Of a stretch of DNA of 64,000 nucleotides, positions 6,865 to 62,690 are shown piece after piece. The DNA comes from Vicinamibacteria bacterium (GTDB taxonomy: Bacteria; Acidobacteriota; Vicinamibacteria; Marinacidobacterales; Marinacidobacteraceae): assembly GCA_963555995.3 (NCBI GenBank), contig OY821641.1, positions 2,912,001 through 2,976,000 on the forward strand, read 5' to 3'. The position numbers were made by a program, and so were the translations under genes. Under the pieces are notes generated by a model that saw only the letters and a program-made list of their open reading frames with translations, did no database searches and had not been told where the DNA came from. How positions within the stretch are numbered: the first letter of the stretch is position 1; every line of letters begins with the position of its first letter.

Positions 6865-8069
6865 CCCACATCGCCGTTGCCGAATCACTACCGCTCCGCC
6901 GAGCGCGATAGAGGCCATTGAATGGACGCCAACAAAGTAACTTTGGTCAAGTTGTTCCAAGGGGATCGTCAGTTCAGGGTCCCGCTATATCAGCGTTCCT
7001 ATGTGTGGGATTTGGACCCGCAGTGGGAACCCCTGTGGGAAGACGTCACTCGCGTTGCCGAGGGCGTCCTCGCCGGAAAGGAATCTATAGCGCCTCATTT
7101 TCTCGGCGCGATTGTCGTTTCCCAGTTACCACAGCCGACGGGGGACTTGGAAATCCGGGACGTTATCGACGGACAGCAGCGTTTGACGACGTTGCAACTC
7201 CTTATGGATGCTGTCGAAGAAGTACTCCGAGAGTCGAACCATGTTACTGAGAGTCGACGTCTTCGTAGTCTCCTGCTCAATGACGATGGACTGTTCTCTG
7301 GCGATGATCAGTTCAAGGTGCGACCAACCAATGCCGATCAGGCGGCTTTCAGAAGTGCCATGGACGACCATCGGGTCGCGAGTCCTGACACCGCAGAAAC
7401 GAATATCGTGAGGGCTCACGAGTACTTCAAGGCATCTGCACGTGCATGGGTATCGAATCTTTCGGCAACCGAAACGAAGGACCGCTTTTCCGCACTAGTC
7501 ACTGCTATACGAAACCACCTCTGTGTAGTCGTCATTGATCTCACGGTTAGCGATAACCATCACGCCATCTTTGAAACGCTAAACGCTCGCGGTACGCCTC
7601 TATTGGCATCGGACCTCGTAAAGAACCATCTTCTCCACGAGGCGGAGAGGCAGAATCTAGATGTCGAGCAAATCTACCGGGAGAACTGGAAACAGTTCGA
7701 GGATCCATGGTGGCACGGCGAGATTACGCTAGGACGCCTCCGATGGCCCAGACTTGACGCATTCCTGTACTACTGGTTGGGGATGCATCTCGCGCAGGAT
7801 ATCAACACGCAGCAGCTCTTCGGCATCTATAGAGAGTTTGTCACCGAGTCCAATCTGAGCCCCCAGAGTGTCGCATCGGACTTCGCAAGCCTTAGCAGGA
7901 CATTCCGATCCATCGAGGACGGTGAACTCTTGGCCGAGGAATGGGATTTCTTCGAGAGGCGAAATGTACTCAATCTTCGCGTCCTCACACCGCTTCTCTT
8001 GTGGCTCTTCGGAGACAAGACCGCGCCGCCAAAGGAAACCCGAAGCGTGTGTCTTCGCCTTCTCGAGAG

Positions 8070-9456
8070 GAGCTATGTCCGAAAGTGGGTGACGGCTGAG
8101 AAGGGGGTGGCGTATCGTGGGGGTTGCTGACCTTCCACATCTCCAAGGAGGAGTGATACGCCATGAAGGAGAGTACTGTTGTTCGCCTTCCCTCGCCAGA
8201 GGGGGTTGAGGACCCGCTGACGGAGGTTCTTCGAGCGGGCGCCCGCGAGTTGGTGCGGCACGCCGTGGAGGCGGAGGTGGCTGCCCTGCTGGCGGCGTAC
8301 GAGGATCATCGGACGGCAACCGGAGTTCGGCGTCTGGTGCGTCACGGCCACGGCCCGGAGCGGACGATCCTGACGGGGATCGGGCCGGTTCCGGTGCGGC
8401 GGCCGAAGGTCCGGGATCGCGGGGACAGCGGGGAGGACCGGATTCGGTTCTCGTCGAGGCTTCTGCCGCGGTTCGCGCGGCGGACGCGCTCGCTGGACGC
8501 GGCGCTGCCGACGCTGTATCTGCTGGGGGTTTCGAGCGGGGACTTCGGGGAGGCGCTGTCGGAGCTGTTGGGCTCGGGGGCATCGGGGCTGTCGCCGGGG
8601 GTGATCGGCCGGCTGAAGTCGGCATGGGAGGCGGAGCACGAGCGCTGGCGGGGGCGGGATCTCTCGGGTCGGCGGTATGTCTACGTCTGGGCGGACGGGA
8701 TCTACCTGCAGGGCCGGCTGGAAGACGAGAAGCAGTGCGTTCTGGTGCTCATCGGCGCCACCCCGGAGGGCAAGAAGGAACTGTTGGGGTTCCAGGCCGG
8801 GTTCCGGGAGAGCGCCCAGAGTTGGCGGGAGCTACTGGTGGACCTGCGTGGGCGCGGCCTCGAAGTCTCCCCGGAGCTGGCGATCGGGGATGGTGCGCTG
8901 GGCTTCTGGAAGGCGCTGGACGAGGTCTTCCCCAAGACCCGCCGGCAGCGCTGCTGGGTCCACAAGACGGCGAACGTGCTGAACAAGTTGCCCAAGTCCC
9001 GGCAACGCAACGCGAAGCAGGACCTCCACCAGATCTGGATGGCGGAGAGCCGCAAGAAGGCGGAGAAGGCGCTCGACACCTTCGCCGCCAAATACCAGGC
9101 GAAATACGGGGAAGCCGTTCGTTGCCTGACCAAGGACCAGGAGGCGCTGCTCGCGTTCTACGACTTCCCCGCCGAGCACTGGCAGCACATCCGCACCACC
9201 AACCCCATCGAGAGCGTGTTCGCCACCGTCCGCCATCGCACCGTTCGCAGCAAGGGATGCCTCTCCCACCGAACCGCGCTGGCGATGGTCTTCAAGCTGG
9301 TCACCGCCGCCAGCGAAACCTGGCGTCGGCTCAACGGCTACGACAAACTGACCCAGGTCATCGAGGGCGTCCAGTTCACCGACGGCATCCAGGCCGACGA
9401 AACCGAAACCCGCGCCGCCGCCTGATCATGCCGTCACCCACTTTCGGACATAGCTC
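8070..9456 (+). mobile_element. IS256-family insertion sequence, 1387 bp
   Basis: Perfect 27-bp terminal IRs (gagctatgtccgaaagtgggtgacggc at 8070-8096 and 9430-9456); direct repeat ttctcgagag at 8060-8069 and 9457-9466. Confidence 0.95.
8163..9425 (+). CDS. IS256 (Mutator-like) DDE transposase
   Basis: YVWADG, AIGDGALGF, QRCWVHK, RTTNPIES motifs. Confidence 0.95.
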   Translation: MKESTVVRLPSPEGVEDPLTEVLRAGARELVRHAVEAEVAALLAAYEDHRTATGVRRLVRHGHGPERTILTGIGPVPVRRPKVRDRGDSGEDRIRFSSRLLPRFARRTRSLDAALPTLYLLGVSSGDFGEALSELLGSGASGLSPGVIGRLKSAWEAEHERWRGRDLSGRRYVYVWADGIYLQGRLEDEKQCVLVLIGATPEGKKELLGFQAGFRESAQSWRELLVDLRGRGLEVSPELAIGDGALGFWKALDEVFPKTRRQRCWVHKTANVLNKLPKSRQRNAKQDLHQIWMAESRKKAEKALDTFAAKYQAKYGEAVRCLTKDQEALLAFYDFPAEHWQHIRTTNPIESVFATVRHRTVRSKGCLSHRTALAMVFKLVTAASETWRRLNGYDKLTQVIEGVQFTDGIQADETETRAAA

Positions 9457-10216
9457 TTCTCGAGAGTTGGTTCATGCGGCGCATGATCTGTGGCTACCGC
9501 GCGCAGGGATACCAAGACTACCTCAGCGCGGTCCTTCGAGACGTCAAGGAACACTCCGTCGATCACGCCTCGAAGGTCGTGGCGGAGGCGCTGTCTGTCG
9601 CCGGCGCATCAGGCACCAAATGGCCGACCGACGAGGAAATACTGTCGGCTGTCCTGACTCGACCGATGTTCAGCTATTCCAGTAAGCCTAGACTCCGTTT
9701 GATTCTCGAGGCCCTTGAGGACCGGGCGCGAAACGACAGCCACGGAAAGACGGAGGACGTTCGTTGTCCAAAGGGATTGACGCTCGAACACATCATGCCG
9801 CAGACTTGGTCACACGAAGACTGGCCGTTGCCGGATTCACACGATCACAACACTAATCCCGAAGATGAGAGGGAAAGCTTGATCCATACACTAGGTAACC
9901 TAACGCTGGTCACTAACAAGCTGAATCCGGCCCTCTCAAACTCGTCGTGGAGAAACAAGAGACCCGAGCTCAGAGAGCACTCGGTCCTTTTTCTGAATCG
10001 AGAGTTAGTTGAACTCGAGTCGTGGAATGAGGACTCGATTCGCCAACGAGGTCGGAGCCTCGCGGCTCGAATATGTCGCATTTGGCCTCGAGACGAAGTC
10101 AGCGTCGACGATGTAGAGGCGTGCATAGCGGACACATTGGCATCGGCGCGAGTGAAGGACTCCTAACAGCGTAGACACGTGGTGAAGAGCCAGCTGAAGG
10201 TGAATTGGAGGTTCCT

Positions 10217-10666: not shown

Positions 10667-11101
10667 GTGAGGGTCGTAGTGGACACGAATGTCCTCGTCG
10701 CTGCCGTGTCCAGCCCGGACGGCGCCAGCCGCGAGGTGCTTCGGCGTTGCCTCCGTGGCGAGTACATCCCGCTACTGGGGGAGGCGCTCTTTCTGGAGTA
10801 CGAGGCCGTTCTTCGACGGAAGGAGCCGTTCGCCAAATCAATCGCGTCGCCTGAAGAGCGCCACACCCTGTGGGCAGCCATGGCAAATCGCTGCGAATGG
10901 GTCCGCGTTCACTACCTTTGGCGTCCCAACTTGCCGGACGAGGGCGACAACCACATCATGGAACTGGCGCTGGCCGGTGGCGCAGAGGCAATCGTCACTC
11001 ACAACACAGGAGACTTCCGGGGCGGCGACCTGCGTTTTCCCCAAGTGCGGGTCCTGACCCCCGCCAACTTGCTCACGGAGACCTCAAAATGGCGACAATG
11101 A
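10667..11101 (+). CDS. PIN-domain putative toxin
   Basis: VVDTNVLV, DEGDNHIMELA, IVTHNTGDF acidic residues. Confidence 0.9.
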   Translation: MRVVVDTNVLVAAVSSPDGASREVLRRCLRGEYIPLLGEALFLEYEAVLRRKEPFAKSIASPEERHTLWAAMANRCEWVRVHYLWRPNLPDEGDNHIMELALAGGAEAIVTHNTGDFRGGDLRFPQVRVLTPANLLTETSKWRQ

Positions 11102-11346
11102 CCATTCGTATTCCGGACGACACCCACGCACGTATCAAGCGCCTGGCGCGCCAACGCGGAATGAGCGTGAACCGCCTCATCGAGGAATTGAGCGTGATTG
11201 CCGTAACCCAGCACGACGCCGAGGCGCGTTTCCGGGCTCTCGCAGCACGCGGATCGGCGCGGGAGGGGCTCGCGCTTCTTGAGAAGCTCGACCGCGCGTT
11301 CGGCGCCGAGCGCTCCGCAGGCCATTCCGAGGAAAGGCCGGCATGA
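11089..11346 (+). CDS. Ribbon-helix-helix antitoxin-like protein
   Basis: MATMTIRIPDDTHARIKRLARQRGMSVNRLIEEL RHH pattern; overlaps the PIN gene. Confidence 0.8.
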   Translation: MATMTIRIPDDTHARIKRLARQRGMSVNRLIEELSVIAVTQHDAEARFRALAARGSAREGLALLEKLDRAFGAERSAGHSEERPA

Positions 11347-11943: not shown

Positions 11944-12293
11944 TAGTGACAGGAGCTCCCCGCCAAGAGATGGCGTTAGTGACAGGAGCTCCGGCCAACC
12001 GATCGCTCTAGTGACAGGAGCTCGACGGGGCAAACCGGGCGAAAGTCGTCCGAAAAACCGGATTTCGGGTCGCCTGGCCGGATTAGTGACAGGAGCTCCA
12101 CCGCCGAGACGGCGTTAGTGACAGGAGCTCGGCCGCCACCGGCGTGATTAGTGACGGTAGCTCCACCACCGAGACCGCGCTAGTGACAGGAGCTCACCGC
12201 GGAATTGCCGGATTAGTGACAGGAGCTGGACCTCCCGGCGCCGGTATAGTCGCAGGAGCTCGGCGTAACCGAAGCGAATAGTGACAGGAGCTC
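11944..12293. repeat. Array of ten 15-bp direct repeats TAGTGACAGGAGCTC with 17-18-bp variable spacers
   Basis: Copies start at 11944, 11977, 12009, 12084, 12116, 12149, 12181, 12214, 12247, 12279 (period 32-33, one 75-bp step); copies 6, 8 and 9 carry 1-2 mismatches. Confidence 0.95.
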
Positions 12294-12326
12294 CGGCAGC
12301 GCGTCCGGCAGTCATTCCCCGTCATC

Positions 12327-13367
12327 GTGGCCATCCTGGACCTGCGGCAATCGCCCCCTTCGGAAGCTCCCGGCGGAGACACCGCCACCACCGGAGAGGT
12401 CGAATCCGTTCGCGAAATGATCGAGTCCGGGGAGCCTCCCGGTCTCGACCGCATCCGGCGGTTCGTGCTGAAGCCGCGCCCGCGGCTCTGGAGATTCGGC
12501 GTCGGGATCTGGCTCTGGATGGTGCGGATCGCCGAGTGGTTCGTGCGCTTTTTCCGGTGGACTGGAGACCTGGCCGTGCGGCTCGCCCGCGCCGCGAGGC
12601 TCGCCGCGTTCCTCGGGCGGCGGACCCAGAACCTCGGGGCGCGGGTCGGCGCCGTCGGCCGGAACTGGAGTTCGGCGGAAGGCCGGCTCGGAGCGGCGGG
12701 TGGGTGGCTGGAGCGATGCGGCGCGCGTCTCGTCGGGGGAGGCGCGAACCTCGCCCAGGTCGGGGACGGCGTGACCGAACTGACGACCCGGGCGGCCCGG
12801 TTCCTGGCCGGCGCTCCCGACGCCGGCAGCGGAAAGCCGCACCCGGCGAACGCCCCTCCGACGGCGACGCCGCCCCCGCCCCGGTCGAGGCGAGGCAGGC
12901 GGCGGGCCACGGACGTCGCGGCGGGTCCGCAGCCGTCCCCCGCGGAGCGCGGCCCGCTTCCGGCCGCCAATGTGGAGGACTCCCCGAAGACCGTCCCGGC
13001 GCCCCCGGTTGTCACGAGCGCGCCGCAGCCCCCGCCCGGCGACCCCCGTCCGTCGGCCGCCGCCGCCGATCCGCCGCCCCTGCCCGACGACCTGCCGTTC
13101 TACCTCCGGAACCAGATCGAACACCTCGGCCAGCGACCGCGCCGGGAAACGGTCGAGAAGCTCATTCTGGCGTTGACCGAAGATCGGGGCTGGCTGGAGC
13201 CGGTCCAGCTCGCGGCGTGGCTCGGCATGACGGTGCCGTATCTGTCGCGGCGGTATCTCGGTCCCATGACGGAGGCCGGCCAACTCGTGCGCCGCTATCC
13301 GAACCGGCCCACGCACCCGGATCAGGCCTATCGTTCGGCGCTCGGCGGCGCGGCCCCGCACCCGTGA
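12327..13367 (+). CDS. Hypothetical protein: amphipathic/hydrophobic N-terminus, Pro-rich linker, C-terminal winged HTH
   Basis: Trp-rich segment LWRFGVGIWLWMVRIAEWFVRFFRW; C-terminal LAAWLGMTVPYLSRRYLGPMTEAGQLVRRYPNRPTHPDQAY resembles the wHTH tail of Fic-like/AlbA-RecG-type proteins. Confidence 0.7.
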   Translation: MAILDLRQSPPSEAPGGDTATTGEVESVREMIESGEPPGLDRIRRFVLKPRPRLWRFGVGIWLWMVRIAEWFVRFFRWTGDLAVRLARAARLAAFLGRRTQNLGARVGAVGRNWSSAEGRLGAAGGWLERCGARLVGGGANLAQVGDGVTELTTRAARFLAGAPDAGSGKPHPANAPPTATPPPPRSRRGRRRATDVAAGPQPSPAERGPLPAANVEDSPKTVPAPPVVTSAPQPPPGDPRPSAAAADPPPLPDDLPFYLRNQIEHLGQRPRRETVEKLILALTEDRGWLEPVQLAAWLGMTVPYLSRRYLGPMTEAGQLVRRYPNRPTHPDQAYRSALGGAAPHP

Positions 13368-13427: not shown

Positions 13428-13724
13428 ATGGCGATCAACCTGACCCACCGGCCCGATCTGGAACACCGGATCGAACGGCTGGCCTCGCGGTTCGGAATGA
13501 ACGGGCGGGGGCGCAAGACGGCGGTGATCGAGCGGGCGCTCACGGCACTCGAGGCGCAGAACGCGCCGATGTCTCCGGAAGAGATACAGGCGTCGCTCGC
13601 TCAATTCACGCATGGCGACCAGATCGCCGCGGAACTTGCGGACGATCCTGAACTCGATCACAGCAAGCCCCTGTCCCAAGCGCTTCAGGACGTCCTGTAC
13701 GACGAATACGGCCTACCCAAGTGA
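13428..13724 (+). CDS. VapB-like antitoxin
   Basis: MAINL..PDLE...RLA...KTAVIERAL and C-terminal LYDEYGLPK; GTGA overlap with the PIN gene. Confidence 0.75.
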   Translation: MAINLTHRPDLEHRIERLASRFGMNGRGRKTAVIERALTALEAQNAPMSPEEIQASLAQFTHGDQIAAELADDPELDHSKPLSQALQDVLYDEYGLPK

Positions 13725-14116
13725 TCGTCCTGGACACGTCTGCCGTGGTGGCGATCGTGCGGGAGGAACCGGAGCGGGATCGTTTCCGGGAGGAGATAGA
13801 GCGTGCCGGCGTGGTCCTGGTGTCCGCTGGAAGTTGCATCGAGCTCGCCGCCGTCGCGGGCCGCTCGGACAGGCTCCGGACAGATGTCGCCAGGTTCCTC
13901 CAACAGCCGTTCGTCAGGATCGAACCGGTCACGATGGCCCAGGCCGAGATGGCGGCGGACGCATTCGAGGCGTGGGGCAAGGGCCACCATCCGGCGGGCC
14001 TGAACCTCGGGGACATGTTCGCCTATCTGCTGGCGCGGGAACGGGACCTCCCGCTGCTGTTCAAGGGAAACGACTTCGCCCGGACGGACGTAAGGAACGC
14101 ACTCGAAGACGAGTGA
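13721..14116 (+). CDS. vapC: VapC PIN-domain toxin
   Basis: IVLDTSAVVAI, GKGHHPAGLNLGD, PLLFKGNDF. Confidence 0.9.
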   Translation: MIVLDTSAVVAIVREEPERDRFREEIERAGVVLVSAGSCIELAAVAGRSDRLRTDVARFLQQPFVRIEPVTMAQAEMAADAFEAWGKGHHPAGLNLGDMFAYLLARERDLPLLFKGNDFARTDVRNALEDE

Positions 14117-14132
14117 CGGAACGGAGGACCGG

Positions 14133-14618
14133 ATGCGCACGTCGCGATGGATCGCCGCCGCCATGGCGGCCGGCATGGCTCTGGGAGGGGTAGCGATGAC
14201 GAAGGGACAACCGGCTCACGACGCGGTCTCGCGTCACCTGGTGGCGGAAGCGATGCTGGCAGCCCACTTCGTGGACGCCGCGGTCAGGGCGGGGATGGAC
14301 CGGGCCGCGATCAACGCGGTGCTGAGCCGCATCGCGGACGAAACCGTCATCTCCGAGTTCTGGGTGAGCGACGAGAACGGCGAGATCGCGTTCACCAACG
14401 TCGAGGGCGCGAACTTCGCGTTTCCCACCGATCCGTCGGCGGACTCCCAGGCGGCCCCGTTCGCGGCGCTCCTGACCGGGGACCGGACCGTCGTGGTGCA
14501 GGAACCGGGGCCGCGCGTGCTCGACGGGGCGGTCTTCCAATACGTCGGCGTCGCCGGGGTGGATCAGACCCGGATCGTCCAGGTCGGACTGTCGGCGGCG
14601 GAACTCGACGAGCCCTGA
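14133..14618 (+). CDS. Secreted hypothetical protein, Cache-like sensory fold suspected
   Basis: Signal peptide; EFWVSDENG and FQYVGVAGVD...IVQVG resemble sensor periplasmic domains. Confidence 0.55.
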   Translation: MRTSRWIAAAMAAGMALGGVAMTKGQPAHDAVSRHLVAEAMLAAHFVDAAVRAGMDRAAINAVLSRIADETVISEFWVSDENGEIAFTNVEGANFAFPTDPSADSQAAPFAALLTGDRTVVVQEPGPRVLDGAVFQYVGVAGVDQTRIVQVGLSAAELDEP

Positions 14619-14730
14619 CGGCGGGGCCGGCAGGGACCGCCGACCTCCAGGTCGGCACTGCTGCGCGCAGCCCGGCGAAGTGTCTGTTTCGCTCGTGCCT
14701 GAGGGACGCACCCCAGAAGGAGGGATCGGG

Positions 14731-14786
14731 ATGCGCCAAACCCGATGGATTGCCGCCGCGATGGCGGGCGGCATGGCTCTGGGAGG
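14731..14786 (+). pseudogene. Truncated 5' end of a paralogue of the 14133 gene
   Basis: MRQTRWIAAAMAGGMALGG vs MRTSRWIAAAMAAGMALGG, with its own RBS; similarity stops abruptly. Confidence 0.65.
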
Positions 14787-16711: not shown

Positions 16712-19561
16712 TCAGAACCCGACGCGAGCGGTGCGGTTCCTGTCCCGTGACTGGGTGACCAGTTCGGACGCGATCTGCTCGGGGTCTTCGAGAAAGCCGA
16801 GCTTCTCAGCGCGCTCGTGGACCAGGGCGAAGTCGGCCGGGACCAGGCGCGTCAGTGTCCGCACCCGCGCCAGGCAATCGCCGCCGAAGAAGAACGTCCA
16901 GGCGCGGACGACGCGGGGTTCGTCGAGGAACTTGAAGGTCGCCCGGAAGAGGAACCGGCGGGCCACCGCCGGGTCCAGCCGGTCAGCGAGGTTCGTGGTG
17001 AAAGCGTAGGGCAGGTCGTGGGCCTCGAGCTGGCTCAGCATCTCGTTCACGTGGCTGATCTCCCAGTTGCGGTGGGCGCCGCGCCGGTCGGCGAGGAAGG
17101 AGTCCGCCTCGTCAATGATGAGGAAGCTGCCCGTCGCGCGCGCCTCGGCGAAGGCCCCCGCGATCTGCTGCTCGGTCTCCCCGATGTATGGGGTCATCAG
17201 TTCGGAAGCGCGCTTCGTCAGAGGATCGAGACCAATCCGCTTCGCAAGCTGCTTTGCGTACTCGGATTTGCCGCTCCCGGACGGACCGTCGAGCAGGATC
17301 CCCAGCCGGCGGCGGCCGATCTTCACGATGCGTTCGGTCAAGGCGGCGATATCCGGCTCGGCGTGGACCAGGGAGAAGTCGTACTTTTCCACCGCCTTCG
17401 CCTCGGCCGTCCGCTTCCCGCGCAGGAGCCGGGCCTTCTCCCGAACGGCGCGCCGCGCCGCATCCGCTCCCCCGCCCGAGAGCGTGGCCACGAGACCGGC
17501 ATTCCGGACCTGCCGCGGCGTGACGCGGCGGTCGGCGGCAAGTTCGTCCGCGACGGCGTCCAGGTCCGCCGAGCCGCCCGCGGCCAGCAGCTTCCGGAAC
17601 ATCGCGACCCGACGGTCCCGGGGCACGTGCTGGAACTCCAGCGAGTAGGTGAGACGGTCGAGAAAATAGGGGAGGTAGCGGCGGAGGTCGCGGATCGAGT
17701 TTGCGGTGAACAGCAGTGGCACCCGGCTCTTCTCCACCAGTCCGTTGAGCCACTGTTTGCACTCGGAGAACGCGAAATCCTCCAACTCGTCGAAAAGGAT
17801 CACGGCATCGGGCTCGTCCGTCAGCGCCTCGACGGCGTATTCGAGACTCACACGCCGCGGTACCGGAAGGCGCGACTCGGGACCGTGTTCCCGTTCTCCA
17901 ACCGAATAGAGCGTGGCCCCGGTCTCCGCGGCGAGGGTTCGGCAGAACTCGGTCTTGCCGCACCCGGGAGGGCCGTAGGCCAGGAAGGCAATCCCGCGAC
18001 CTTCGGGACGGCCGTCCCTTCGCGCGGAAAGCGCCTCCGTGAACACGCGGCGGAAGTCGTCGGCGCTCTGACCGAGATGCCCGAAGGCATCCCAGCGAAG
18101 GTCGGCGCCGACCGGCGCCCCCAGGCGCGGCCGGCGGATGTGGGTCGAGACGGTCCGCTCGTGGCGTTCGGCGAAGCGGAAGAGGTCCTCCGGGGAACCC
18201 TGAATCAACGACGTGGAACGAATGGCGCGTTCGATGATGCCGGGCGGGCACTCCAGCTCGTCGGCCAGACGGACGGCAAGCGGTTCCAGTGCCTTACCCC
18301 GCACGCTCTCGATCCCGGAGTTCGTCAGCATCCGGCGCACCACCGAGCGGCGCCGGGTGGGACTGTGCGCCTTGAAGTGAATCGTCAGATCAAAGCGGCG
18401 GAGCATCGCCTCGTCGAACCGGGAGAGGTCGTTACCGGTGAACACGACGGGAACGGCGGCGTTCTCCAGCAGGCCGTGGTTTTCCCGGCGGCCGCCGTCG
18501 CTGGACGACAACACGTCCTCCACCTCGTCGCACAGGATGGCCGCGCCGGGTTCGCTGCTGAGCAGCGCGAGCGCCATCCGGAGGCGGTTCCGTTTGTCCG
18601 CCGAGCGGTCCATCCGGCGATCGGTCCGCTCCTCCTTCCAGACGCCGCCGGGCTCGGGCTCGCAGAGGTCGTAGAGGCGGCCTCCGCACTCGCGGACCAG
18701 CGTCTTCGCGAATTCCGTCTTGCCGGTGCCTGCCCGGCCGTAGAAGAGCAGGCGGACGCTTTCGCGGGACTTGTTCGCGGCGGTGAGGAGACGGACCGCG
18801 TCCTCCCGGGCGTTGAGGTGGTCGAACGCTTCCATCTCCAGGAGCGGCTCCGGCGCGGGTGGCACCAGGCGCTCCCGGAGCTCCCCTTCATCGGCGACCG
18901 GGGGCCGGTAAACGCAATCGAACCAGCCCTCCACGTAGTCGTCGGGCTGCGCCCCGTTTCGGCTCCAGTTCCCGGCGTCGGCGATGCCGACCTCCGTCAG
19001 CCGGCGCAGCGATTTCTCGACGCGGCCCCGGGAAGTCCCGAGCAGGACCGCGCTCGCCTCCAGCGGATCGCCCAGGGCATCCTTCACGGTGTCCCAGAGA
19101 TTCTCCACCGGCGACCTGCGGTCGTCGTAGAGGCGCGCGAGCTCGAGGAGCGGGCCGCACGCCTCGTCAAGCTGGAAGCGGCGCACCGCGAGCGCCGTGG
19201 CGCGCGCCTCGGCCCCTGCGGCGGGTGGCTCGGCGACGGACCGCTCCACGGCGTCGGCCGCCCAGGCCAGGAACTCCTTTGCCTGTTCGCGCGCGGGCGC
19301 CCGGCCGTTGCCGGTCGCGCGCCGGCGGCGGGGGCGTTTCCGCCGGCCTCCGAAGGCGAAGTGGGGGTCGCCCTCGTCCACGTCGTCGAGGCCCGACTCC
19401 CGGAACTTCACCGCCAGGAATCCGGCACCCACCATCTCGAGTTCGTCCTCGCTGGCCCCGATCCAGCCAAGGAGCTTCGTTGCGAGCGGCTTGTCCCGCA
19501 GGGCGCGGTGGAGCGCGGCCATCAGGTAGCCGCGGGTCAGGAAACGGTCGTACTTCTTCAA
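16712..19561 (-). CDS. AAA+ ATPase with three AAA modules
   Basis: Walker A GRAGTGKT, GPPGCGKT, GPSGSGKS; Walker B ILCDE, ILFDE, LIIDE; arginine-finger motifs MLRRF, FLDRL, VARRF. Confidence 0.85.
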   Translation of the reverse strand: MKKYDRFLTRGYLMAALHRALRDKPLATKLLGWIGASEDELEMVGAGFLAVKFRESGLDDVDEGDPHFAFGGRRKRPRRRRATGNGRAPAREQAKEFLAWAADAVERSVAEPPAAGAEARATALAVRRFQLDEACGPLLELARLYDDRRSPVENLWDTVKDALGDPLEASAVLLGTSRGRVEKSLRRLTEVGIADAGNWSRNGAQPDDYVEGWFDCVYRPPVADEGELRERLVPPAPEPLLEMEAFDHLNAREDAVRLLTAANKSRESVRLLFYGRAGTGKTEFAKTLVRECGGRLYDLCEPEPGGVWKEERTDRRMDRSADKRNRLRMALALLSSEPGAAILCDEVEDVLSSSDGGRRENHGLLENAAVPVVFTGNDLSRFDEAMLRRFDLTIHFKAHSPTRRRSVVRRMLTNSGIESVRGKALEPLAVRLADELECPPGIIERAIRSTSLIQGSPEDLFRFAERHERTVSTHIRRPRLGAPVGADLRWDAFGHLGQSADDFRRVFTEALSARRDGRPEGRGIAFLAYGPPGCGKTEFCRTLAAETGATLYSVGEREHGPESRLPVPRRVSLEYAVEALTDEPDAVILFDELEDFAFSECKQWLNGLVEKSRVPLLFTANSIRDLRRYLPYFLDRLTYSLEFQHVPRDRRVAMFRKLLAAGGSADLDAVADELAADRRVTPRQVRNAGLVATLSGGGADAARRAVREKARLLRGKRTAEAKAVEKYDFSLVHAEPDIAALTERIVKIGRRRLGILLDGPSGSGKSEYAKQLAKRIGLDPLTKRASELMTPYIGETEQQIAGAFAEARATGSFLIIDEADSFLADRRGAHRNWEISHVNEMLSQLEAHDLPYAFTTNLADRLDPAVARRFLFRATFKFLDEPRVVRAWTFFFGGDCLARVRTLTRLVPADFALVHERAEKLGFLEDPEQIASELVTQSRDRNRTARVGF

Positions 19562-57367: not shown

Positions 57368-57476
57368 CACCGTTCATCGGGACGTCACGACCGGGAGCGC
57401 CGGTCTTCAGACCGGCATCGCGGCCGCCGGCCGCGAAACTCCCTGGTCACTCGCCCGACATCGACTGCCCGACAGA

Positions 57477-57847
57477 TTGACCGGAGCTTTGACCGGAGCT
57501 CCCTTCGTTTGACCGGAGCTTCGGTCAATTGACCAGAGCTTTGACCATTGCTCCGGCCGTTTGACCGGAGCTTTGACCATTGCTCGACCGGGTTTGACGG
57601 CAGTCGTCGGGAGAATCCGGGCAATAGCTCCGAAATCGGTCACGACCGGCCCGAAAGACCGAATTCAGGCCGAAAAAGACCGATTTCGGCCGAAAGAACC
57701 GATTCCAGCGGCAACCGCTGGATCATCCGAATACGGCGGGGCAACGCCGGAATTCAGGGGAATTGACCCCAGCTCCGGTCAATTGACCCATGCTCTTGAC
57801 CGGAGCTCCCATCAATTGACCGGAGCTTTGACCGGAGCTCCGGTCAA
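57477..57847. repeat. Bipartite array of ~12 TTGACCGGAGCT 12-mers with a 20-bp-repeat central spacer
   Basis: Copies at 57477, 57489, 57509, 57529, 57541, 57561, 57573 and 57763, 57783, 57796, 57816, 57828; some extend into palindromes ending GGTCAA. Confidence 0.92.
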
Positions 57848-58007
57848 TTTCTGGTCGGAGGTGGAGAAGACCGCACCCCGCGCCTGAAGGTGGCGCGTAC
57901 GGCTTGGAACGCCGGTCTCCAGACCGGCACGCGCGCCGCTCCGCGGCGCGCACGTCGCAACTCCACCCGCCCACATGGCTGTACTACCGGGACCGCCAGT
58001 CTTCAGG

Positions 58008-61359: not shown

Positions 61360-61764
61360 GGAGAACCTCCTCACGAGGCGTGGTTCGAAGGGCCGAGTCC
61401 GGGCAGCCAGCCTGGTGGCGCCGGAGGGAATGCGCGTTGGTTGGACGCCGCCGCCCCGTGAGGGCGCGTCCGCGCGCAATCGGCCGAAAAGGATGGAAAG
61501 TCAATTCGAGAGAAAGTATCACGCAAGGGTCATTCCCTGCCAGTACACAGTTCAGGGCCGGAATGCAAGAGCGATAACGTCCATTTTTTCAAGGGTTTAT
61601 GAAATGGACCGCCAGCGTCGCCACCGCGTCCCGGTTCGGGTTTCCGGTTTTTCGAACCGCAAGTCCAACGAGCCGTAGTTTCGTGGCGATCGTCCTCGTT
61701 CCGCCGGCCGGGGCGGCGCGGTGTCCGGAACCTGCGGCGGTCCGGGGGTCCGGACCGCCGCGCC

Positions 61765-62601
61765 GGTTTGGAACGCCGGCTTCAGCCGGCACAGCCTGCC
61801 GCAGGCGGGCAGCGGGACGGATCTCATCTGCCGGGATGGCGCGAAGGCCCGGAACGCTAGCCACTCGTTCCTTCATGGCGCCTTGCCGGCCCACGCGCCA
61901 TGCCGGCAGGAGCCTTACGTCGTTCCGCTGCGCTCTGCGCAGCGGGTGCCGGCTGAAGCCGGCGTTCCAAGCCGTTTCGCCGTTCTCATGGCCGGCGGGG
62001 TGCGCCGGAAGACACGCGCATGGACGTTGCTGTGAAAATGCGACTCCCGTGGGTCCGTCACCAGCCGTGATGGCGCCGCCGGCTTGGAGCGCCGGCTTCA
62101 GCCGGCACAGCCCGCCGCAGGCGGGCGGCGGGACGGATCTCATCTGCCGGGATGGCGTGAAGGCCCGGAACGCTGGCCACTCGTTCCTTCATGGCGCCTT
62201 GCCGGCCCACGCGCCATGCCGGCAGGAGCCTTACGTCGTTCCGCTGCGCTCTGCGCAGCGGGTGCCGGCTGAAGCCGGCGTTCCAAGCCGTTTCGCCGTT
62301 CTCATGGCCGGCGGGGTGCGCCGGAAGACACGCGCATGGACGTTGCTGTGAAAATGCGACTCCCGTGGGTCCGTCACCAGCCGTGATGGCGCCGCCGGCT
62401 TGGAGCGCCGGCTTCAGCCGGCACAGCCCGCCGCAGGCGGGCGGCGGGACGGATCTCATCTGCCGGGATGGCGCGAAGGCCCGGAACGCTGGCCACTCGT
62501 TCCTTCATGGCGCCTTGCCGGCCCACGCGCCATGCCGGCAGGAGCCTTACGTCGTTCCGCTGCGCTCCGCGCAGCGGGTGCCGGCTGAAGCCGGCGCTCC
62601 A
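61765..62601. repeat. Tandem array of a 316-bp REPIN-containing unit (~2.6 copies)
   Basis: Equivalent positions at 61770, 62086, 62402; near-identical copies. Confidence 0.95.
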
Positions 62602-62690
62602 GGCCCTTCTGCCGTCTTCATGACCGGCGGGGTGCGCGGGAGGAGACCCGCATGGACGTTTCTGCCGGTGGCGGTTCCCGGCCGGCAGTG

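Follow-up and report, generated by a model that had tools for sequence, protein, structure and literature searches.

A family of bacterial proteins, each with an amphipathic N-terminus and a C-terminal winged helix, comes with phased arrays of short DNA sites, and it is very probable from the sequences that each winged helix binds its own array. About 25 natural protein–site pairs are predicted on this one small winged-helix scaffold, six of them in one genome. By analogy with Noc of Bacillus subtilis, the reading we prefer, at a probability of roughly 55%, is that the protein would dock on its array and clamp DNA to the membrane. The type case lies in a stretch of 64,000 nucleotides, here called the window (GenBank assembly GCA_963555995.3, contig OY821641.1, positions 2,912,001 to 2,976,000), from a Vicinamibacteria bacterium whose genome carries our handle G000.

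A phased array in front of a gene

The array (Table 1) repeats its 15-bp cores at a period of 32-33 bp. Seven of the ten cores are exact, one has one mismatch and two have two mismatches; the steps from core to core are 33, 32, 75, 32, 33, 32, 33, 33 and 32 bp, and a gap of 33 bp separates the last core from the GTG start at 12327. A sequence-only reading of the window had given ten copies, this period, a 3+7 split and this distance to the GTG, and our coordinates and steps agree. It had described the spacers as diverged yet related, as indeed they are: at 17-18 bp they resemble one another, and the cores are kept while the spacers drift. It had also called the array non-coding, which is borne out by stop codons in each of the six frames over it; a coding repeat is thereby ruled out. 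The 75-bp step corresponds to about seven helical turns, and the four A/T tracts in its long spacer stand 10-11 bp apart, a pattern from which bent DNA is predicted there.

Table 1. Features of the window, with positions counted from its first nucleotide
Feature	Position	Strand	Remarks
Phased array, ten 15-bp cores, class A	11944..12293	+	Candidate binding sites of downstream protein
Core starts	11944, 11977, 12009, 12084, 12116, 12149, 12181, 12214, 12247, 12279
Long spacer (75-bp step)	12024..12083	+	Four A/T tracts; separates 3-copy and 7-copy halves
346-aa gene, class A paralogue (six-member family in genome)	12327..13367	+	Purifying selection
Cationic amphipathic N-terminal helices (aa ~36-161)	12432..12809	+	Net +15, Trp-rich start
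Pro-rich low-confidence linker, likely disordered	12810..13091	+	AlphaFold and sequence
C-terminal winged helix	13095..13340	+	Related to Fic-like_C (below cut-off) and to HTH of Schlafen-HATPase_c_4 proteins
Second array, class E, gene-less, bipartite, some inverted copies	57476..57850	.	Behind AAA_14-DUF4143 gene

The exact class A 15-mer occurs 15 times in the 3.8-Mb genome, every time within an array, and 107 of 108 genome matches to a looser motif fall in clusters, which together exclude a chance origin. The window array also turns up in contigs of public runs from one study. A known RNA can be ruled out, the lone Rfam match (E 0.89) being without meaning and far under its gathering score. 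A sigma-70 promoter scan, uninformative at the 70% GC of this genome, found none. Nor is this a CRISPR array: the 17-18-bp spacers are related to each other, and there is no cas gene among the scanned neighbours. The units are direct repeats, with no inverted repeat listed inside the array.

Around the module lie two PIN toxin-antitoxin pairs, a split GmrSD gene and a methyltransferase. The PIN toxin-antitoxin-like pairs (10667-11346 and 13428-14116) flank an HD gene together with the array-gene module. The GmrSD-type restriction gene (6922-10166) is in two parts, with N- and C-terminal Pfam domains, separated by a transposase-like ORF (8163-9425). On the other side, a 58-bp direct repeat (14131-14188 and 14729-14786) covers the start of a 161-aa gene and an apparently truncated second copy, and a 949-aa protein (16712-19561) has three AAA stretches, the last of which matches IetA-type PADLOC models.

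A winged helix with an amphipathic N-terminus

That the gene behind the array is real follows from purifying selection (dN/dS 0.13-0.22 in the winged helix and 0.35-0.58 in the N-terminal helices, in two comparisons) and from the AlphaFold model of its product. The model has long helices at residues 52-115 and 121-161, a Pro-rich linker of low confidence and, at 258-337, a winged helix whose pLDDT exceeds 90. Every part of the layout proposed from the sequence is found in it, and the region singled out at that time for structure prediction (residues ~255-346) gives a confident winged helix.

The sole Pfam match of the window protein is Fic-like_C (PF21247), at 17.8 bits against a cut-off of 27. 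The same family matches 18 of 22 homologues at E<=0.1 (best 3e-7), and the best solved relative of the winged helix is the C-terminus of the Fic protein 4RGL. Fic-like_C is in this sense its closest match in both sequence and structure, albeit with a score under the Pfam cut-off and in a protein that has no Fic domain. Foldseek matched nothing at E<=0.001, an uninformative ESM Atlas search with aa 30-165 gave no usable match, PADLOC gave no match for the window protein, and Pfam searches of it found no AlbA_2, HATPase_c_4 or other ATPase domain.

The N-termini exceed their own shuffles in amphipathicity, measured as hydrophobic moment, in 22 of 22 homologues; the moment peaks at 100-102 degrees and the net charge runs from +7 to +23. 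The highest 19-residue hydropathy is 1.68 among the 22 homologues and 1.13 in the window protein, in which hydropathy picked out no transmembrane-like segment. Low hydropathy together with amphipathicity predicts a peripheral, not an integral, membrane role, so we take the window protein to be a predicted peripheral membrane binder. The earlier description of the protein as membrane-associated survives in its amphipathic N-terminus; with no transmembrane-like segment it becomes a prediction from amphipathicity alone.

Twenty-eight arrays on one chromosome

G000 has six paralogues, and a profile search found no seventh. Each of the six adjoins a phased array with its own 15-bp variant; in four cases the array lies upstream with a period of ~32 bp, and in two it lies downstream, inverted and bipartite, with a period of ~21 bp. 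The notion that arrays all point at their gene was dropped, classes E and F being inverted downstream and class P and the homologue L051 not.

A de novo scan and a motif scan of G000, with one long cluster split into two, gave an inventory of 28 arrays, all intergenic by our own gene calls. Six are gene-adjacent and 22 gene-less, and 21 of those 22 match the class of a resident paralogue; the class E array of the window, for instance, matches the paralogue at C1:1819695. The exception is a class G array at C1:114455, for which no class G gene was found in this near-complete genome; it matches two copies preceding the homologue L003 in genome G008. Throughout, the cores are conserved, the spacers drift and the steps stay on whole turns: of the steps of 110 bp or less, 236 of 243 fall within 2 bp of whole helical turns. 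The sequence-only reading had held that arrays scattered regardless of neighbouring genes would speak against the pairing of protein and site. They are scattered (22 of 28 gene-less), yet nearly all of these are class-matched. What the gene-less majority argues against is a simple operator or a single centromere, both of which that reading had entertained; it does not argue against binding.

Convergent-gene gaps hold 13 of the 28 arrays, all of them gene-less, compared with 107 of 568 long gaps (p=6e-4). Along the chromosome the arrays are mildly more evenly distributed than random (p=0.03-0.05, and p=0.04 with the same array merging applied to the control), although this is a weak test on one genome. 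KOPS-like replichore-polar sites seem unlikely, as neighbouring arrays lie on mixed strands, and a tether for PHA granules was rejected, there being no PhaC_N match in the genome (93% complete).

These positions bear on the idea that the protein does nothing beyond repressing or road-blocking its own transcription, the gene-less arrays being neutral strays. Most gene-adjacent arrays do fill the upstream gap, and the in-gene sites of the Schlafen relatives described below, just before the winged-helix part, could act as road-blocks. We nonetheless consider autoregulation alone improbable. Several classes have their array downstream, 13 of the 22 gene-less arrays lie between convergent genes and 2 between divergent ones, and the conserved amphipathic domain would be left with no role.

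A selfish, REP-like minisatellite would account for the arrays in another way, as sequence that multiplies by duplication or is carried along with REP or IS ends, with a protein that either does not bind it or binds the ends of a mobile element. The arrays are insertions confined to particular lineages and sit at hotspots between genes: where three gene-less sites were lined up with relatives, the corresponding junctions in G014 are short and empty. Arrays also survive without the gene, and repeated IS-like ends adjoin 4 of the 28. We find this quite improbable all the same, because the motifs track the class of the neighbouring gene and because the cores are kept, on whole turns, while the spacers drift. 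REP elements lie near 12 of the 28 arrays, much the same share as among long gaps (189 of 526). No target duplication is visible at the three sites, and no conserved transposase neighbour was seen at the G000 loci. The array units, moreover, are direct repeats and not the hairpin palindromes, associated with a RAYT transposase, of REP/BIME sequences; REP elements form a separate family in this genome.

The two kinds of repeat do meet in places. At L095:3990-7000 (G000 C1:679390-682400) stand eleven 300-bp units, each consisting of a REP-like element and a class E site pair, so that the class E sites there have been amplified together with REP units; a class F array follows directly. In the window, 61761-62664 holds three 316-bp units, head-to-tail, made of REP-like palindromes, and C1:~3.33-3.42 Mb of G000 is a large region of ~7-kb repeated units with strong GC skew.

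Motif and recognition helix

Where recognition helices are nearly identical, the genes have one motif in common, in 10 of 10, 5 of 5 and 4 of 4 genes of three classes. Beyond such close kin we compared 25 class representatives, hand-picked and with cores aligned by eye, a set in which kin share both traits. Their cores have a common scaffold (A at position 2 in 22, G at position 5 in 22 and G at position 12 in 24). Among them, motifs tend to be more alike where the recognition helices are (rho 0.195, p=0.011), also with the rest of the domain removed in a partial Mantel test (0.164, p=0.033); the rest of the domain gives 0.135 (p=0.06; partial p=0.18). Peaks in a sliding window fall on the basic arm, the recognition helix and the wing, with p values that are uncorrected. 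These correlations are modest, and there are counter-cases: L015 and L073 share an 11-residue helix and have motifs that agree at 7 of 15 positions, and L050 and L018 have a common motif and different helices. A single-residue recognition code looked strong in raw counts (11/12 versus 2/13), yet these reduce to 3 independent pairs and are not significant. The family holds about 25 specificities in all, so that both a recognition code and an orthogonal DNA-tethering toolkit become directly testable.

Arrays with and without genes

Of 24 other genomes of the family, 19 yielded the protein. Four of the five in which it was not found have no contig-level excuse, at 92-94% completeness, and none of the 16 genomes of two sister families yielded it. 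Across 200 genomes of the phylum the domain was matched in five, four times fused to HATPase_c_4 and once in a short ORF. The source names of homologues include two Acidobacteria and two Proteobacteria MAG proteins.

We scored 61 homologues from 19 genomes, leaving out the fragments L019, L024, L026, L060 and L062-L064, five fused or distant loci and two duplicates. The array detector passes 55 of the 61, one of them on a coding repeat, so that 54 of 61 have an array; among control genes it passes 2 of 573. Four of the other seven homologues (L003, L009, L043 and L044) have arrays visible by eye or in the locus listing, L040 has two palindromic copies and L013 sits at a contig end. The second gene of L036 is an intact-looking tandem gene without an array, and L037, counted in the 54, is a truncated relic with arrays of other classes on both flanks. 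The sequence-only reading had proposed looking for arrays beside homologues, and its predicted pairing of a protein with a cognate site array gains much from the result. All six paralogues have their own variant, most homologues have an array, and the motif follows the recognition helix.

Arrays and genes also keep company across genomes. Class C arrays are confined to a single genome of the 41, the one in which the class C paralogue was found. Class P arrays occur in 13 of 41, of which seven (G002, G004, G005, G008, G009, G011 and G014) have array and gene together and six are fragmented genomes with an array and no gene found; G000, G001 and G013, all near-complete, lack both. Six fragmented genomes have arrays of class A or P for which no cognate gene was found. 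One class A gene-less array is common to G007 and G015, in neither of which the class A gene was found, and G004 has a small class E array with no cognate gene found. In the other direction, G014 has the class A gene and no exact array pair. From arrays in genomes where no gene was found it follows that arrays are inherited and can outlast the gene, or that the gene is unassembled. The co-occurrence pattern for class E was set aside as too narrow, since it missed genomes with known arrays.

In relatives, at L146:1290-1680, L063 and L037, arrays of one class are fused to, or lie near, truncated winged-helix ends of another, relics whose sequences point to turnover at shared hotspots. Small genes for coiled-coil proteins, with coding repeats of 21/33 bp, are met again and again close to modules (L036, L059, L060, L136 and others).

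Plasmid iterons with their Rep proteins likewise pair helically phased direct repeats with an adjacent gene whose winged-helix product binds them, and single-protein partition systems exist, pSK1 Par and StbA among them. The module might then be the partition-type centromere of an integrated mobile element; the layout of gene plus repeats is right for one, and the many specificities resemble incompatibility groups. We regard this as highly improbable, given up to 9 arrays per class spread over one chromosome among housekeeping genes, no match to the domain in 72,556 plasmid or 50,697 phage records, and no match to the class P array in viral contigs. The protein has no Rep or Par family match, only weak HTH-type ones, and the number of arrays per chromosome sets it further apart.

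A proposed tether in the manner of Noc

According to the accessible part of PMC4331003, Noc of B. subtilis binds NBS sites round the chromosome and has an N-terminal amphipathic helix, with which it binds the membrane in a DNA-dependent way that needs nucleoprotein assembly. Set against that text, the likeness is that the window protein's family has an N-terminal amphipathic helix (computed for 22 of 22) and that 28 arrays, of presumed cognate status, are dispersed round the chromosome. The differences are equally plain: Pfam gives no ParB/CTPase domain in the window protein or in 22 homologues, and the model of the window protein has none; the amphipathic part extends over ~120 aa, the sites are direct repeats in phased arrays, and there are six orthogonal paralogues in one genome, with a patchy presence of the family.

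As far as PMC12857230 is accessible, Streptomyces TraB offers a second comparison: it binds short clt repeats beside its own gene and similar sequences over the chromosome. Our module likewise joins a protein to short repeats beside its gene and across the chromosome, in this case with 15-bp sites, as opposed to 8-bp clt repeats, no FtsK-type ATPase motor and no match found on plasmids. By the defining features of Noc, TraB, Rep/partition systems, CRISPR and REP, the module belongs to none of them. By analogy it would work like a site-specific DNA–membrane tether, yet as a member of no family that we tested. The literature we searched, with most subscription journals outside it, contained no description of the module.

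The tether might operate as follows. Each winged helix would, very probably, read its own 15-bp variant, the whole-turn spacing aligning the proteins on one face of the DNA. Clustering would then make weakly binding amphipathic helices avid enough to stay on the membrane, as has been reported of Noc, a step we think rather likely. While the gene is present, copies of the array would spread into tolerated gaps, mostly between convergent genes. Several orthogonal sets of DNA–membrane anchors would result, and arrays may outlast the gene. The conserved amphipathic N-terminus appears to fit such a tether, which, if true, would be a Noc-like anchor made from a part of a defence protein. About 25 specificities and a patchy presence are odd for housekeeping anchoring of a chromosome.

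Schlafen-ATPase relatives

Searched with a profile, 1.84 billion representatives yielded 2592 matches. Among the best 150 of these are many AlbA_2 + HATPase_c_4 proteins with the winged helix at their end, and in this set the matches in fused proteins reach E 1e-55. In an unrooted 81-column tree, 51 standalone and 3 fused domains form one branch beside the fused proteins; the sample is biased by the query and the tree gives no direction of descent. Sequence relationships as a whole make it appear that the reading domain derives from the C-terminus of Schlafen-ATPase proteins.

In 18 of 29 relatives the winged helix is preceded by a linker with a period of seven residues (0 of 29 at periods 5, 6, 8 or 9). 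Eleven linker-bearing loci have a single 13-bp DNA motif every 21-23 bp within the gene, and in 5 of the 11 genes, plus one frameshifted gene, a copy of the motif stands in a second reading frame and encodes a different peptide. The same motif kept in different reading frames means that selection acts on the DNA. Where the copies are in frame, GAT is the choice 39 times out of 39, compared with 50 out of 131 in gene bodies, the copies sharing ancestry. L154 has the class P motif in its gene and a helix that resembles the class P helix; in standalone genes with a similar helix this motif stands outside the gene. The fused proteins and ours are alike, then, in a homologous C-terminal winged helix and in a phased DNA motif of the same style, there carried in the gene as 7-codon repeats. 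They differ in that the window protein has amphipathic helices in place of a nuclease and an ATPase, and that its sites are intergenic.

Two papers (PMC13056530; 10.64898/2026.05.29.728809), in their accessible parts, present Schlafen domains as RNase effectors that come coupled to sensor modules, the HTH being the commonest extra domain. The first names a pSlfn-HisKinase-HTH architecture and the second a 'Schlatpase' with a C-terminal HTH. These same parts say nothing of repeats or of DNA sites for the HTH, nor do they give the trigger of the Schlafen-ATPase proteins. Our results propose a ligand for the C-terminal HTH of this very common architecture, namely a DNA site, and the 7-residue 'low-complexity linker' would be that site, kept across reading frames.

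With such relatives, the protein could instead be a DNA-held defence or addiction effector. The arrays would keep a membrane-damaging cationic helix (or, in fused forms, a Schlafen RNase) inactive on the tagged DNA of its own cell, and degradation of the chromosome by phage, or loss of the tag, would free the effector and kill the cell. The closest relatives of the domain occupy the C-terminal slot of Schlafen-HATPase proteins, whose Schlafen domains are described as RNase effectors in the accessible text of the two papers. Rapid turnover points the same way, and conflict systems typically show what is seen here, namely many specificities, a patchy distribution and relics; a gene without an array is almost never seen and an array without a gene often is; and the window locus sits amid the toxin-antitoxin, GmrSD and methyltransferase neighbours described above. 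Defence-type genes are immediate neighbours of 12 of 28 arrays, however, against 6 of 28 random long gaps, an enrichment in defence islands of about twofold only (p=0.076). There is no PADLOC match and no transmembrane-like segment, clustering on DNA would more simply turn membrane binding on than off, and the second gene of L036 looks intact yet has no array. We therefore hold the defence effector to be possible and rather unlikely; if true, such a guard would amount to a new logic of phage sensing. Autoregulation alone, the selfish repeat and the plasmid-type centromere fit worse than the tether and the defence effector do.

A broader proposal, and a tentative one, covers both kinds of protein: a portable reader of self-tags, in which a winged helix co-diversifies with its own phased 15-bp tag and forms a genome-integrity switch. 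The tag would be in the protein's own coding sequence, as in the Schlafen-ATPases, or in arrays spread over the chromosome, and would hold or position an effector (an RNase or a membrane-active helix) until host DNA is destroyed. If true, this would be a class of defence with DNA as the antitoxin, and it would account for the HTH that the commonest bacterial Schlafen architecture carries.

A general linkage of the modules to neighbouring Schlafen-ATPase genes was set aside, as it concerns one paralogue (L096) and one other tested locus. At L096:5962-7330, a Schlafen-HATPase gene without the C-terminal winged helix is divergent from a class D array, and just past its stop codon stand short GATCG repeats that look like a relic of the linker.
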